From the UHGV virus genome UHGV-0061980: 16,785 bases of DNA; one strand, written 5' to 3'. A model generated the notes under the pieces. That model was not told where the DNA came from, did no database searches, and saw nothing but the letters and a program-made list of their open reading frames with translations. Of this stretch, positions 7,579 to 14,541 are shown one piece after another. A program made the translations under genes and the position numbers. This DNA is from a virus. The number at the start of each line of letters is the position of its first letter. Positions within the stretch are counted from its first letter, which is position 1.

Positions 7579-8229
7579 ATGAAAACTCAATTGATGGGAG
7601 AGCGCATTCGCGCTCGGAGAAAAGAACTCAAGATCAGGCAGGCCGCACTTGGAAAGATGGTCGGCGTGTCTAATGTTGCCATATCTCAGTGGGAACGCTC
7701 TGAGACAGAGCCAAATGGAGAGAATCTTCTCGCCCTGGCTAATGCGTTGAAGTGTTCCCCTGACTATCTGATGAAAGGAGAGGAAAGTCTTTCAAACATT
7801 GCCTATCACAGTAGGCATGATCCAAGAGGGTCATACCCTCTGATTAGCTGGGTGAGCGCAGGATGCTGGATGGAAGCTGTAGAACCATATCATAAGCGTG
7901 CAATAGATAACTGGTACGATACAACCGTAGACTGTTCAGAAGATTCGTTTTGGTTGGACGTGAAGGGAGACTCAATGACGGCTCCGGCCGGTCTCAGTAT
8001 CCCTGAAGGAATGATAATACTCGTCGATCCTGAAGTAGAGCCGCGTAACGGGAAACTGGTAGTTGCAAAGCTCGAAGGAGAAAACGAGGCAACTTTCAAG
8101 AAGTTAGTTATTGATGCAGGCAGGAAGTTTCTAAAACCACTTAACCCACAATATCCGATGATCGAGATCAACGGAAACTGCAAAATCATCGGCGTAGTTG
8201 TCGATGCAAAACTAGCAAACCTTCCATAA
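7579..8229 (+). CDS. c2: Prophage repressor, P22 c2-type (LexA-like S24 peptidase C-terminal domain), 216 aa
   Basis: The translation is nearly identical to the P22 C2 repressor as recalled (QLMGERIRARRK.LKIRQAALGKMVGVSNVAISQWERSETEPNGENLLAL...). HTH N-terminal domain; autocleavage elements GDSM and the downstream Lys are present. Confidence 0.95.
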   Translation: MKTQLMGERIRARRKELKIRQAALGKMVGVSNVAISQWERSETEPNGENLLALANALKCSPDYLMKGEESLSNIAYHSRHDPRGSYPLISWVSAGCWMEAVEPYHKRAIDNWYDTTVDCSEDSFWLDVKGDSMTAPAGLSIPEGMIILVDPEVEPRNGKLVVAKLEGENEATFKKLVIDAGRKFLKPLNPQYPMIEINGNCKIIGVVVDAKLANLP

Positions 8230-10444: not shown

Positions 10445-10756
10445 ATGATGATTCTGACTCTGAATGATAAGCGTGAAATATCGCAAATAATCGCAAGTTT
10501 TACTGATGAAGATTACGAGCGAATCAACAGTGAAGTTGTTCGCCTCTGCAAACGTTGCGACCCAATAAGCGAAATGCTTCGCTCATATAAACCAGATGAA
10601 CACACTAAGGACGCTATCGACTGGCTGGAAGATGATGATTGTAACTATCAGGAAAAAGCCGCTGAATGGTTCTGGGATGCAATAACCGAAAGAGTTAAGG
10701 CTGAATATGCCTTCGCAATATTCAAACGCAGACACATTTATGGAGAAGCAGCATGA
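10445..10756 (+). CDS. Hypothetical acidic protein, 103 aa, immediately upstream of recT (the positional equivalent of lambda gam)
   Basis: AGGAG SD upstream of ATGATG; ATGA overlap with the recT start. Net acidic. No family recognised. Confidence 0.55.
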   Translation: MMILTLNDKREISQIIASFTDEDYERINSEVVRLCKRCDPISEMLRSYKPDEHTKDAIDWLEDDDCNYQEKAAEWFWDAITERVKAEYAFAIFKRRHIYGEAA

Positions 10757-11664
10757 GCAATATCGTTGAATTCGTTAAACAGCAGGAGCAGTTATTCTGC
10801 GGAGCATTGACTGAACAGACGGTGACATGGGCTAAGGAAAGCCAGTTTGCAATTCAGTATTTCCAGAAAAATGATTACCTGGCTAAAACAGCACTGGCAA
10901 ATCCAACCAGCGCACAGAACGCCATCATCAATGTTGCGGCGATCGGCATCACCTTAAACCCTGCAAGCAAACTGGCTTATCTGGTTCCGCGCGATGGCAT
11001 GGTTTGCCTTGATATCAGCTATATGGGATTGCTCCATATTGCAATGGAGTCTGGTGTTATCTCATGGGGTCAGGCAAAACTTGTTCATGCTAACGATACC
11101 TATGAGTCAAACGGGCTTGATAAAGCACCAACCCATAAATACAACGCCTTCGGTGATCGTGGTGATATCGTTGGCGTTTACTGCACAGTTAAGACGCCAG
11201 CAGGTGATTATCTAACGGAAGAGATGAGTCTGGCTGAAATTGAGGCTGTAAGGAAAACAAGCAAGGCAGCATTCAGCGATAAAGGACCATGGGTAAATCA
11301 CTGGAATGAGATGGCGCGAAAGACGGTCGTAAAGCGTGCAAGCAAGTATTGGCCTAAGGCATCACGTCTTGATAGTGCTATTCACGTACTAAACGAAGAA
11401 GAAGGTGTGTGGACTGAACCAGTTATGCCGCATAAATCAGAGGAAGATATCCGCGAAGATGAACGGAAACGCCAGCAGGAAATAACGGAAAAAGCACAAC
11501 TTCTTTGTGATGAAATGGCTCAGGCTGAAAACATGGATGATTTGAAGAGATATTTTGCAGAAGCATATCGCCTGACATCTGGAATGAAATTGCAGCAGAA
11601 CGTACAAGCCATTTACATAGAATGCAAAGCGAAACTGGAGGTTGCCAGTGAGCAAACTATATGA
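10753..11664 (+). CDS. recT: RecT-family single-strand annealing recombinase, 303 aa
   Basis: The motif GPWVNHWNEMARKTVVKRASKYWP matches the conserved RecT region (Rac RecT GPWVTHWEEMAKKTAIRR...KYLP as recalled). Size and position fit the phage recombination module. Confidence 0.85.
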   Translation: MSNIVEFVKQQEQLFCGALTEQTVTWAKESQFAIQYFQKNDYLAKTALANPTSAQNAIINVAAIGITLNPASKLAYLVPRDGMVCLDISYMGLLHIAMESGVISWGQAKLVHANDTYESNGLDKAPTHKYNAFGDRGDIVGVYCTVKTPAGDYLTEEMSLAEIEAVRKTSKAAFSDKGPWVNHWNEMARKTVVKRASKYWPKASRLDSAIHVLNEEEGVWTEPVMPHKSEEDIREDERKRQQEITEKAQLLCDEMAQAENMDDLKRYFAEAYRLTSGMKLQQNVQAIYIECKAKLEVASEQTI

Positions 11665-12130
11665 AATTGCCAATGAATACGCAAAATTGATGGATTCAGA
11701 TTTAGAACCAGAGATGATTGCTGACACAATAGAAGGCATGGAAGGAGAATTTACCGATAAAATAGAACAACTTCTTTCCGTCATTAAAAATGAATCTGGT
11801 TATGCCGAACGCCTCAAGGAAGAGGCAAAGTCACTGAATGAGCGAGCCGCAGTAATTCAAAATAAGATTGACAGCATCAAATCATATATAGCGTCATCGC
11901 TTGAAATGGTTGGCAAGAAAAATATTCGAGCAGGTATTCACCAGGTAACAATCCGCAAACCGTCAGAAATTGTAGAAATAATCGACTCAAGCGCCCTTCC
12001 TCCTGAATACGTTGAGTTTGAAACGACAATTAAAGCCGACAAACTGGCAATCAAGCACCAACTAAAAGCAGGAATAAATATTCCCGGTGCTCAACTCAAG
12101 GTTGGGAAACCTTCACTTCTTATCAAATAA
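11648..12130 (+). CDS. Gp157-like (Siphovirus Gp157 family) protein, about 160 aa; GTG start
   Basis: GGAGG sits 6 nt upstream of the GTG at 11648; the listed ORF begins at an upstream TTG. Coiled-coil-like sequence of a size and position (directly after recT/erf) typical of this family; assignment from memory only. Confidence 0.45.
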   Translation: MSKLYEIANEYAKLMDSDLEPEMIADTIEGMEGEFTDKIEQLLSVIKNESGYAERLKEEAKSLNERAAVIQNKIDSIKSYIASSLEMVGKKNIRAGIHQVTIRKPSEIVEIIDSSALPPEYVEFETTIKADKLAIKHQLKAGINIPGAQLKVGKPSLLIK

Positions 12131-12472: not shown

Positions 12473-12754
12473 ATGAAGCTAAACATCGACCTCGGCAAAT
12501 ACGTTATCACCGGAACCAAACACGATCTGATTCTTAGCGAAAGAGGAATTATCAAAGAAGGCGAGAATGCAGGGAAAGAAACACTAAGTCGTATCGGTTA
12601 TTACAGCAAGTTTGAGCATCTGGTTAAAGAGTTATGCAACCGTGAAATCCTGTTATCTCAGGCGCAGACGCTACAGGATATTCAGCAGCATATCGAGACT
12701 TTAGGTGTGTCACTTAGCATGGCTATTGACCAGTTCGTTGAGAGTAAATCATGA
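12473..12754 (+). CDS. Hypothetical protein, 93 aa
   Basis: Clean ORF on the operon strand; its stop overlaps the next start (ATGA). No family recognised. Confidence 0.5.
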
Positions 12755-12915
12755 GAGGACTTGCATACAATCCCGGCATTCTTCCGGCAGAAATGATTAT
12801 TCGCCAACGCGTAAAGCCAATGCCATCGAGAGAGGAATTACTTAAGCAAAACTCGTTTCCATCAGTGAATCAAAACAAATATCTGAATGCGATGTGGCGG
12901 AGTGGGAAGAAATGA
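12751..12915 (+). CDS. Possible small coupled ORF, 54 aa (below the ORF-track cutoff)
   Basis: ATGA overlap with the upstream stop and with the downstream start ([54 protein letters not shown]). Supported only by this coupling geometry. Confidence 0.3.
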
Positions 12916-13475
12916 AACAAATGTCACTAATTGAGATGGATAGTTTTCTGAAAGGTAAATGCATCCCACGAGATTTAAAGGTTAACGAAACAAACGCTGA
13001 ATATCTGGTGCGTAAATTTGCTGAAGCGGAGGCCAAGATTTCGGCTCTGTCCGAAGACCACCAGAAAGCGATTGAGTCAATTAAGCAGGCTGATGCGGCT
13101 GTTAAGTTGGCACACGAGAAGTTTTCGGCGCTGGCAGCGGAGAATGCCTCAATGAAGCTGTTTATCAGGGGCTGTTGCTACGTGTTTGATGGCCAGCAGG
13201 ATGAAATATCTGATGCGTATATCTGCGCAACAGACGGAGGGATGCCGCAAATTCCAGCCACCGACGCTTTCCTGGCTGAAGTTCGGGCGCAGGGCGTGGA
13301 TGCTGCTATAGAAGCTGCAAAAAATCTGGTGGCCCAAGAATATGAGTATAAGGATTTCAAAGCGGCGCAGAGTGATTGCTGTATGCACCCTGGTTCAGAC
13401 CTGGTAGGGAAGGTTGAAATGACTGAGTGGTTAGTTGACTTTGCTGCCCAGCTTCGCAAAGGAGGCAACCAGTGA
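12912..13475 (+). CDS. Hypothetical protein, about 187 aa, with a coiled-coil N-terminus and a Cys-containing C-terminus
   Basis: ATG at 12912 follows GGAG; an alternative GTG start at 12894 has no SD. Its stop overlaps the GTG start of the Ea22-like gene. Confidence 0.5.
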
Positions 13476-14050
13476 GCGAAATTAATTACCAGGCACTGCG
13501 TGAGGCGGCGGAACGTGCAATTCCAGCAATGGAACGCCTGTTAATGTTGCCAGCTGATGATGATTTGATAAGTGAACAGGAACTTAAAGATTACGGTGTG
13601 GATATTGATGCGCTCAACGCCTTCAAATTTCTGGCCGGACCAGAAACCGTGCTGGCGCTGCTGGATGAACGGGAAAGAAACCAGCAATACATAAAACGCC
13701 GCGATCAGGAGAACGAGGAAATTGCGCTAACGGTAGGGAAGCTGCGTGTTGAGCTGGAAGCCGCAGAGAAGCGCATTGCAGAACTGGAAACACGGGAAAT
13801 AAAACCAGCCAAAGGTGAAGTTCTTGTCGTTGTTTCTGGTTTTACTGGTTGCGGAAAAAGCGCCATTGCCGGGGAAATAGAAATTGCGATGAAGGCTATT
13901 GGTGTACCGGTTCAGAGGACTAATGGCGATGCGGAAAAGCGCATGACAGGAGCTGACTGGCTGACAGCGATTGAGATGTACAAACCAACAGTGCGCATCG
14001 TGGAAGTTAATGTGCCACGCGCCGCTGGCATCAAGGAGGAGTCTGAGTGA
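13472..14050 (+). CDS. Ea22-like (Ead/Ea22 family) protein, 192 aa, with a C-terminal Walker-A-like motif
   Basis: [14 protein letters not shown]... and LALLDERERNQQYIKRRDQENEEIALTVGKLRVELE match lambda Ea22 as recalled. GGAGG SD before the GTG start. The C-terminus contains VLVVVSGFTGCGKS (G-x4-GKS). Confidence 0.7.
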   Translation: MSEINYQALREAAERAIPAMERLLMLPADDDLISEQELKDYGVDIDALNAFKFLAGPETVLALLDERERNQQYIKRRDQENEEIALTVGKLRVELEAAEKRIAELETREIKPAKGEVLVVVSGFTGCGKSAIAGEIEIAMKAIGVPVQRTNGDAEKRMTGADWLTAIEMYKPTVRIVEVNVPRAAGIKEESE

Positions 14051-14541
14051 TGGTCATTTCACCTATAACGCTGAAAGCGGCGCAGGAATTTATCGCACAG
14101 CACCACCGACACAATAAACCACCAGTGGGGCATAAATTCAGCATTGGTCTGAGAAATAATGCCGGAGAATTGATAGGTGTGGCGACAGCTGGTCGACCTG
14201 TTGCACGACATTTCGACGATGGATTAACGCTTGAAGTAAATCGCACATGTACCACAGGAGAACGCAACGCTAACAGCGCGCTTTATGGTGCTATCTGGCG
14301 GGCAGCAAAAGCTATGGGTTATCAACGTTGTATTACGTACACCCAGGCAGATGAATCAGGAGCATCTCTTCGCGCAGTTGGTTTTGTTCGTGTGAAAGAG
14401 CTTCCTCCAAGAAAAAGCTGGGCGGAATCAAGCGTCGCCCTGCGGAGTAAACGCGATCCGGTCGGAAACGGTGGTATTCCTCGTGTGCTCTGGGAAATCA
14501 GGAGAATGAGTACCACTGGCATTGGCATCAAAGGAGGGTGA
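14050..14541 (+). CDS. Conserved-looking hypothetical protein, about 163 aa (HHRH motif; possibly an acetyltransferase-like fold, unverified)
   Basis: ATG at 14050 overlaps the Ea22-like stop (TGATG); AGGAGG upstream. Fold assignment is a guess from motif spacing only. Confidence 0.5.
   Translation: MVISPITLKAAQEFIAQHHRHNKPPVGHKFSIGLRNNAGELIGVATAGRPVARHFDDGLTLEVNRTCTTGERNANSALYGAIWRAAKAMGYQRCITYTQADESGASLRAVGFVRVKELPPRKSWAESSVALRSKRDPVGNGGIPRVLWEIRRMSTTGIGIKGG

Follow-up and report, generated by a model that had tools for sequence, protein, structure and literature searches.

We analysed a 16,785-nucleotide stretch of the virus genome UHGV-0061980 (hereafter the window) and found that an Ea22-family modular gene on its plus strand (13472..14050; 192 aa in the open reading frame (ORF) list, with a GTG start and a TGA stop at 14048-14050) carries a small module at its 3' end that is a discrete, mobile and strongly conserved phage domain. 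Judged from its sequence, the protein has three parts: an N-terminal Ead/Ea22 region, a long helix of coiled-coil type, and a module of ~65-70 residues that replaces the C-terminal domain (CTD) of lambda Ea22. The module (aa 115-182; 13814..14017, plus strand) runs in the order strand, Walker A, helix, strand, loop, helix, strand, and is here called the mini P-loop module. With moderate confidence, we read it as an oligomer-dependent mini P-loop head that would bind a phosphate-bearing or nucleotide ligand and is mounted on the Ea22 coiled-coil scaffold.

The Ea22 family, the modular swapping of its CTDs and the sequences themselves, deposited in databases under a generic name, are already known. 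As far as could be found, two points are undescribed in the literature searched: that a recurrent Ea22 CTD is an autonomous ~70-aa Walker A domain related to the N-terminal third of adenosine 5'-phosphosulfate (APS) kinase, and that this module is widespread as a standalone phage early protein.

The Ea22 scaffold and the exchanged C-terminal domain

Membership of the Ea22 family was evident from Pfam, in which aa 2-104 (13475..13783, plus strand) scored 107.8 bits for PF13935 (Ead/Ea22; cut-off 27, E=8.3e-31), and in PHROGs the whole protein matched phrog_250 (function unknown) over aa 1-188 (E=1.8e-66). A first-pass annotation of the window had called an Ea22-like protein at this ORF, and the gene lies where it was placed. 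Lambda Ea22 (NC_001416 29847-30395; UniProt P03756) was used as the reference. BLASTP aligned aa 1-120 with residues 1-115 of lambda Ea22 at 49% identity over 138 columns (41 gaps; E=3e-32), bearing out the earlier match to lambda although its extent, given as the N-terminal two-thirds, comes to slightly less (~60%). The two proteins have in common a GTG start, the N-terminus MSEIN...QALREAAE, an early pL accessory position after the recombination genes, and a plan of variable N-terminal region, coiled coil and exchangeable CTD (PMC10834534). Within the Ead/Ea22 region, the variable N-terminal segment is followed by the conserved ERERNQQYIKRRDQENE...LTVGKLRVELE helix, which is likewise shared with lambda Ea22. 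The window protein differs from lambda Ea22 in an insertion of ~20 aa close to the N-terminus and in having the shorter coiled coil. Oligomerisation is predicted to occur through a long single helix (aa 57-107; 13640..13792, plus strand), the putative coiled-coil segment, modelled by AlphaFold2 (AF2) in single-sequence mode with a predicted local distance difference test score (pLDDT) of 76-89.

The BLASTP alignment stops at aa 120 ('...LVV'), and the C-terminal ~70 residues differ from lambda as had been noticed at first pass. Comparison of the module family with the lambda CTD by hhalign gave a probability of 0.13%, indicating no relationship, and the lambda-type CTD (aa 102-182), a dimeric alpha/beta domain solved by NMR, is absent from the window protein. 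As CTDs normally vary among Ea22 proteins (PMC7093339), this absence does not speak against membership of the family. The GxxxxGK[ST] pattern was sought in the lambda CTD and is absent there, which agrees with the first-pass annotation. The lambda CTD begins with 'QFLVVRHPGKT' (lambda Ea22 aa 110-122; the region of 1540-1570 in the lambda locus L001), a superficially P-loop-like string, made up of a hydrophobic strand and then GKT, located where the alignment with the window protein ('EVLVV') ends. The idea that this CTD ('FLVVRHPGKT...') is a degenerate relative of the module was ruled out by the hhalign value; the resemblance of the lambda GKT seems coincidental, or it may mark a recombination junction shared by the two genes.

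The difference from lambda had also been described as a domain swap. The CTD has indeed been replaced, but no special event need be invoked, as exchangeable CTDs are the documented rule (PMC7093339, PMC10834534), and Ea22 proteins in general have been described as modular, with a coiled coil between a variable N-terminal region and a CTD that varies from phage to phage (PMC7093339, PMC8614690, PMC10834534). Lambda Ea22 was found experimentally to form a coiled-coil tetramer with dimeric CTDs (PMC10834534). The Ea22 proteins that have been studied experimentally, those of lambda, 933W, Phi24B and P27, appear to be without the CTD seen here, and records of Shiga toxin (Stx) phages match the first ~290 nt of the gene only. 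A P-loop, Walker motif or ATP is not mentioned in connection with Ea22 in PMC7093339, PMC8614690 or PMC10834534, the variants of Tong et al. 2020 lying outside this scope.

Conservation and distribution of the module

The Walker A motif GFTGCGKS (aa 123-130; 13838..13861, plus strand) follows the hydrophobic strand EVLVVVS (aa 116-122), and the stretch in which the first-pass annotation had recognised a P-loop, VLVVVSGFTGCGKS, corresponds to aa 117-130. A GxxxxGK[ST] pattern arises in 0.3% of composition-preserving shuffles of the window protein, a rate that makes the motif alone weak evidence, and the case therefore rests on conservation. Of 356 representatives of the family clusters, with identities down to ~45%, 350 still have the Walker A. 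In a conservation alignment of 135 sequences, drawn from both subfamilies and three proteobacterial classes, the motif is invariant, with G123, G126, G128, K129, S130, A131 and E135 present in 135/135. Ten further positions (G134, I136, E137, A142, G144, E155, T159, D162, W163 and P172) are each kept in at least 132/135, V174 and E178 in 134/135 each, I138 and A161 in 130-131/135, Y170 in 126/135 and K156 in 124/135. From these comparisons, the Walker A motif is not the product of chance and is under strong selection. The module core is also acidic in every member examined, with a mean net charge of -3.3 and a range of -7 to -1.

At one position the window departs from its family. The codon AGG at 13916..13918 (plus strand) encodes R149, a site occupied among 350 other scored members by W (279), Y (49), F (11) or H (7), with aliphatic residues in the remainder and R in none. 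AGG is a single T-to-A change from TGG. E. coli strain 20Y000092 has the R149 allele in a phiV10-like prophage, with 100% identity across 204 nt, so that an error confined to the sequencing of the window is ruled out.

A search with aa 104-192 gave 372 clusters at 90% identity, nearly all of them named 'ead/Ea22-like family protein' and one 'ATP-binding protein', and an exhaustive HMMER search with aa 108-192 of 50%-identity representatives gave 430 proteins at E<=1e-3, 339 of them at E<=1e-10. Of 5,426 complete E. coli genomes, 364 carried the module, in chromosomes as well as plasmid prophages. The module is thus not confined to this gene. Among isolated phages the module is rare, with 17 of 50,697 records positive by tblastn, none of them from Stx phages. 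The phage types that carry it include lambdoid, Mu-like, BPP-1-like, P1/D6-like and jumbo phages, with hosts in the Alpha-, Beta- and Gammaproteobacteria. A scan of one genome per species located it in Escherichia, Mangrovibacter, Chania, Serratia, Methyloversatilis, a Burkholderiales metagenome-assembled genome (MAG), Pandoraea and Sulfuriferula, and also in Methylobacterium, Mesorhizobium and an Acetobacteraceae MAG. The sole hit outside the Proteobacteria was on a 3-kb contig (L003) of a MAG labelled Collinsella, where the product is 93% identical to the window protein.

In 155 domain matches the module, covered over ~75 residues, was C-terminal in 133 (proteins of 110-623 aa), N-terminal in 12 and internal in 10. 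No Pfam domain was found in ten long fusion partners, so that the architecture gives no functional hint. In distant lineages the module stands alone or begins a short protein; examples have 77 aa (L009) and 88 aa (L011). When the Sulfuriferula copy was used as the query, 88 clusters were found; their median length was 79 aa, 73 were no longer than 100 aa and none had a Pfam domain. Standalone module proteins measure 71-88 aa, the smallest (72 aa) being the module alone, and the automatic JGI names of standalone members (APS-kinase-like, dA/dC kinase, uridine kinase, HypB-type GTPase and ABC ATPase) all amount to guesses at a P-loop protein. In prophages of Betaproteobacteria the module was observed at the end of proteins of 400-620 aa that are without Pfam domains (P0216, P0246 and P0263; L008 1694-4240). 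In these long partners, linkers rich in Ala/Pro connect a series of short segments. Several of the proteins have CxxCxGxG or CPxC motifs of zinc-ribbon-like character, and from their sequences they look like small 'polyvalent' early proteins.

Every module neighbourhood that was inspected is a phage early region. The loci in Pandoraea, Mesorhizobium, Sulfuriferula and Methyloversatilis have integrase, DNA methyltransferase, Sak4-like, SbcC-like and DNA polymerase genes nearby, and in Burkholderia phage BcepC6B the module lies in a cluster of exonuclease, DUF2815, methyltransferase and polymerase genes. In Mu-like prophages it is found in the semi-essential early region between MuA/MuB and GemA, and elsewhere among runs of small ORFs. 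Beyond this generic early-region context, no conserved partner gene was seen across the neighbourhoods.

No Pfam or NCBIfam model covers the module, and the PHROGs that match it are of 'unknown function'. The PADLOC defence and anti-defence models gave no match to the module alone, and the full protein was matched over the coiled coil only, without significance (E=0.015-0.024). A record note describing phiV10 gp48 as a fusion with a DUF550 pyrophosphohydrolase was not upheld, current Pfam giving Ead_Ea22 only. The Betaproteobacterial phage VarioGold, which infects Variovorax, carries an Ead/Ea22-like gene as well as an early-region gene, VG_p38, for a 98-aa protein described as 'AAA+-type ATPase / P-loop ATPase family' (PMC9658991). 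VG_p38 might be another very small P-loop early protein and is a possible member of the module family, but it had no match in the tblastn search of phage records.

P-loop affinity and possible roles

In the window protein, Pfam gave sub-threshold matches to APS_kinase (aa 117-154) and AAA_16, the APS_kinase scores being 14.7-16.7 bits against a cut-off of 21.1 over profile positions 3-40 of 152. NCBIfam matches were also sub-threshold only (13-16 bits against cut-offs of 139-715) and were mostly to APS-kinase models, the others being to 2-phosphoglycerate kinase, MinD, MrpORP and gluconokinase. When 48 diverse members were scanned singly, AAA_16 was matched by 47 and APS_kinase by 45 (best E = 5e-5), and nearly all of the remaining weak matches belonged to the P-loop clan (AAA_18, AAA_30, nSTAND, KTI12, PRK, AAA_33, CbiA and ParA). 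Aligned by hhalign with the APS kinase of E. coli (CysC; PF01583), the family profile reached a probability of 95.3% with 37% identity over 38 columns, in which EVLVVVSGFTGCGKSAIAGEIEIAMKAIGVPVQRTNGD pairs with CysC 28-65. The aligned span comprises strand 1, Walker A, helix 1 and strand 2, and ends at (N/D)GD. The DGD of APS kinase is matched in the window protein by a G-D-A-E-K loop after strand 2 (aa 152-156; 13925..13939, plus strand); this DGD part varies in the standalone subfamily. Both proteins also have a basic residue four positions past the Gly of the GD pair, K156 in the module and R68 in CysC. A full-size kinase domain that was met incidentally (L015) aligned with a probability of 96.4% over 29 columns. 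As far as profile comparison goes, the first ~38 residues are thus shown to be homologous to the N-terminal segment of APS-kinase-type P-loop kinases. Adenylate kinase was considered as the closest kinase and rejected (hhalign 1.7%).

No similarity to known families was detected past the DGD position. Unlike APS kinase, which has ~175-200 aa, the ~70-aa module is without strands 4 and 5, the lid, and the elements after DGD that bind APS and the ATP base. Weak matches to the SIMIBI-class nucleoside triphosphatases (NTPases) FtsY/Ffh, MinD/ParA and MobB cover a segment of strand, P-loop, helix, strand and Asp. SIMIBI NTPases act as nucleotide-dependent dimers and so offer an analogy for a module paired by a coiled coil, but the similarity is not significant, G4/G5 and the deviant Walker A lysine are missing, and the module is far smaller. 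Sequence and profile searches of the PDB returned nothing significant; the best profile match, HasAp (E=0.009), is without a P-loop and was regarded as chance.

Two AF2 models were made, both monomeric, one of them of the full-length protein from the single sequence without an alignment. The single-sequence model placed strands at 116-124, 147-151 and 173-181 and helices at 129-142 and 160-170 (pLDDT 40-63), and both models concur on the two helices. The monomer models have no recognisable fold, and the single-sequence model, with a C-terminal pLDDT of 40-63, was used for topology only. Walker A accordingly sits between the strand EVLVVVS and helix 129-142. The sequence VRIVEV, which the first-pass annotation had pointed to after the P-loop as possibly Walker-B-like, is found at aa 174-179, and VRIVE (aa 174-178; 13991..14005, plus strand) forms a hydrophobic strand ending in the near-invariant E178. 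We infer that this strand may act as Walker B; the conservation of E178 is as expected of a Walker-B-like residue, while the strand is predicted only in the low-confidence model.

No structural match was found for the model of the module domain. With the full-length model, the top Foldseek hits were FtsY/SRP54, MobB, thymidylate kinase, KaiC and the de novo ATPase PL2x4_2, the best E of 0.055 being non-significant; PL2x4_2 (9jix) was matched over 76 columns with probability 0.94 and E of about 0.1. The Foldseek 3Di+AA score rewards Walker A letters, and partly for this reason the enrichment in P-loop proteins was taken as no more than suggestive. The module resembles the designed minimal P-loop proteins (6c2u/6c2v of the Tawfik laboratory, and PL2x4_2) in being a very short beta-(P-loop)-alpha unit; such units depend on oligomerisation, and they appear among its weak matches in both sequence and structure. 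What the two have in common is limited to motif and topology and is statistically non-significant. Unlike the designed proteins, the module is natural and acidic, and it has the additional invariant residues E135, E137, E155, T159, D162 and W163.

The conserved residues make up the set that holds the triphosphate and Mg2+ in P-loop proteins, namely a Gly-rich loop, Lys, Ser and an acidic residue at a strand end, together with a kinase-like GD-x-E-K loop. Both faces of strand 1 (V-L-V-[TV]-V) are hydrophobic. If the sheet has three strands, strand 1 would lie exposed at its edge, a position that points to pairing with another subunit. The need of strand 1 for a partner would also explain why the AF2 monomer does not fold. 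With lambda Ea22 a tetramer and the designed P-loop proteins oligomeric, an oligomer-dependent head is the reading that we favour. Designed P-loop polypeptides of 40-110 residues bind nucleoside triphosphates (NTPs) only as oligomers (bioRxiv 10.1101/2020.07.30.228619), and the idea of a mini P-loop is thus physically plausible. In the mechanism we propose, the cut-down P-loop would use K129/S130 and E178 to contact its ligand, most likely a nucleotide together with Mg2+, and self-association of the module would complete both the sheet and the binding site. In this protein the coiled-coil tetramer of Ea22 would bring the modules together; in others, homo-oligomerisation would do so. The head could then act as a ligand-binding or sequestering unit, or as a nucleotide-dependent switch, in the early interplay of phage and host, a role other than that of a conventional kinase or ATPase.

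Several points weigh against the oligomeric P-loop head. Nucleotide binding by the module is inferred from sequence, the matches to curated P-loop families are all below cut-off, and they cover only ~40 residues. With strands 4 and 5, the lid and a base-recognition element lacking, affinity and specificity for nucleotides are uncertain. Two invariant acidic residues of helix 1, E135 and E137, are foreign to P-loops and could point to another function, for instance a protein-binding surface, and the R149 allele of the window could be functionally impaired. As a tentative extension of the same reading, one that we regard as possible but not probable, the module would be a natural, autonomous P-loop protein of ~65-70 residues whose dimers or tetramers bind nucleotides or nucleotide-derived signals, deployed early in infection by many types of phage, for example as a sponge or switch acting on a nucleotide messenger or on NTP pools, and forming a natural counterpart of the laboratory 'P-loop prototypes'.

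The foremost alternative, which we consider doubtful, is a protein-interaction or decoy domain derived from a kinase that has lost nucleotide binding, with the loop and the acidic surface binding, mimicking or poisoning a host protein such as a host P-loop enzyme or a defence protein. Ea22 CTDs have been proposed as ligands for host proteins (PMC7093339, PMC10834534), and the family-wide acidity of the core would suit such a surface, as would E135 and E137 and the THADW segment, which are non-standard for NTPases. The early accessory location, typical of host-takeover or anti-defence genes, and the failure of the AF2 monomer to fold alone are also in keeping with it. For a docking surface, however, the retention of G123, G126, G128, K129 and S130 together with E178, a phosphate and Mg2+ set, would be an odd coincidence, and conservation over hosts as distant as Escherichia, Burkholderia and Mesorhizobium would be harder to explain if one particular host protein were the target than if the ligand were a small molecule found everywhere.

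Binding of a single-stranded DNA (ssDNA) or RNA backbone by an oligomer of the module, with a part in DNA transactions, is improbable. It would fit the finding that designed beta-(P-loop)-alpha oligomers bind ssDNA and promote strand separation (bioRxiv 10.1101/2020.07.30.228619), and RecT/Gam, Sak4-like, SbcC-like, exonuclease, DNA polymerase and methyltransferase genes adjoin the module in several phages. The acidic charge of all members examined is nevertheless unlike that of typical nucleic-acid binders, and the neighbourhood is the generic early region, in which no constant partner gene was seen.

We give a similarly low estimate to the reading in which Ea22 is fused to a full, catalytically active NTPase or kinase domain of the P-loop type. 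Walker A, a Walker-B-like hhhhE and a DGD-like loop are all present, and the name 'ATP-binding protein' of one homologue and the JGI kinase names speak for it. Against it, similarity to CysC ends after 38 columns with the APS_kinase scores under the cut-off, the domain model found no structural match, and entire proteins of 71-75 aa are known. Known P-loop kinases and NTPases require five strands and a length of no less than ~150 aa, about the size of the smallest kinases and NTPases known to have been characterised, and the module is well under half that size. A three-layer alpha/beta/alpha core with at least five strands, mostly parallel, was not found; with ~65-70 aa and three predicted strands a complete canonical P-loop NTPase is therefore excluded, and a monomeric canonical P-loop domain is effectively refuted by size alone. 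What survives of the nucleotide-binding variant proposed at first pass is the consistent direction of the weak matches, all to P-loop families with APS kinase closest, and not a full NTPase or kinase domain. A chance motif or a decaying, functionless remnant, for which the shuffle rate and the unusual R149 might be adduced, is extremely unlikely and is already refuted by conservation, given a motif and some 20 positions invariant or nearly so across the alignment, the standalone genes, the 430 clusters at 50% identity and the occurrence of the R149 allele in a second prophage.

Should oligomeric nucleotide binding prove true, the module would represent a new, uncurated and widespread phage domain family and the first biochemically interpretable effector domain for the Ea22 and other exo-xis proteins, with a possible role in the lysis-lysogeny decision or in counter-defence. 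It would also be a natural test of the minimal size of a functional P-loop, a question so far addressed with designed polypeptides only. If nucleotides are not bound, it would be one more exchangeable C-terminal module of Ea22.

Neighbouring genes and gene junctions

The window comprises the early region of a lambdoid phage of P22/HK97-like type, with its best matches to Kapi1, Gally, CUS-3 and HK140. A DnaB-like helicase (P) and an O protein are encoded on the minus strand, and the plus strand carries in order cI (7579-8229), the leftward operon with RecT (10753-11664) and a Mu-Gam-like gene (11642-12130), and then small accessory genes. The Ea22-type gene is located 3' of the RecT/Gam-like block and therefore occupies the same place as ea22 in the exo-xis block of lambda; it is a genuine early accessory gene in the pL operon of a P22/HK97-like lambdoid prophage. 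A strong Shine-Dalgarno sequence, AGGAGG (13460..13465, plus strand), was read 6 nt 5' of the GTG, which itself overlaps, within GTGA (13472-13475), the stop codon of the ORF before it. The gene's own TGA overlaps the start of the following ORF, and the three genes are therefore translationally coupled members of an operon.

The preceding ORF (12894..13475, plus strand; 193 aa) is a paralogous second modular gene of Ea22 style, matching phrog_614, phrog_368 and phrog_14548 and without a Pfam domain. Its N-terminal module recurs in another protein (P0001), where the mini P-loop module is attached to it directly and which additionally has the 'SKLNEQREYYEGVI.DGSKRIA' coiled-coil segment of lambda; as read from the sequence, P0001 is a clear example of module shuffling among these genes. 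Further upstream, a 93-aa ORF (12473-12754, plus strand) matched DUF5405 (PF17399) with 25.6 bits against a cut-off of 21.6, and phrog_154, annotated as 'replication initiation protein', a label that looks unlikely for so short a product (93 aa) of the accessory block.

The following gene (14047..14541, plus strand; 164 aa, starting at GTG 14047 or ATG 14050) encodes a product resembling the DNA-modification protein Mom, with matches to phrog_1384 (E=7.6e-42) and, below cut-off, to Pfam Mom (PF25680, E=6e-5); RefSeq names it 'XF1762 family protein'. In the unrelated phiV10-like prophage of E. coli strain 20Y000092, the same CTD allele also adjoins this XF1762 gene (L026 3737-4228), and the pair is located between replication protein P and terminase. 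From this shared arrangement, the XF1762 gene and the 3' portion of the Ea22-like gene seem to travel as one mosaic block.

The conserved C-terminal K/R-G-E tripeptide of Ea22 proteins has been termed 'of unknown significance' (PMC7093339). The window protein differs in terminating with ...IKEESE. The codons of K/R-G-E (aaa gga g..) were seen to form the Shine-Dalgarno sequence of the next, tightly coupled gene in another locus (L002, 4244-4263) and in phiV10 (L017 2720-2739). From these sequences, the K/R-G-E 'protein motif' may be a conserved gene junction that serves as a Shine-Dalgarno sequence and recombination boundary. The variant tail of the window (14018-14050) holds AAGGAGG in its IKEE codons (14033..14039, plus strand), 7 nt before the start of the Mom-like/XF1762 gene, for which it is the Shine-Dalgarno sequence, and lambda retains the identical junction, 'ggcattcgcatcaaaggagagtga' (L001 1348-1372, minus strand).

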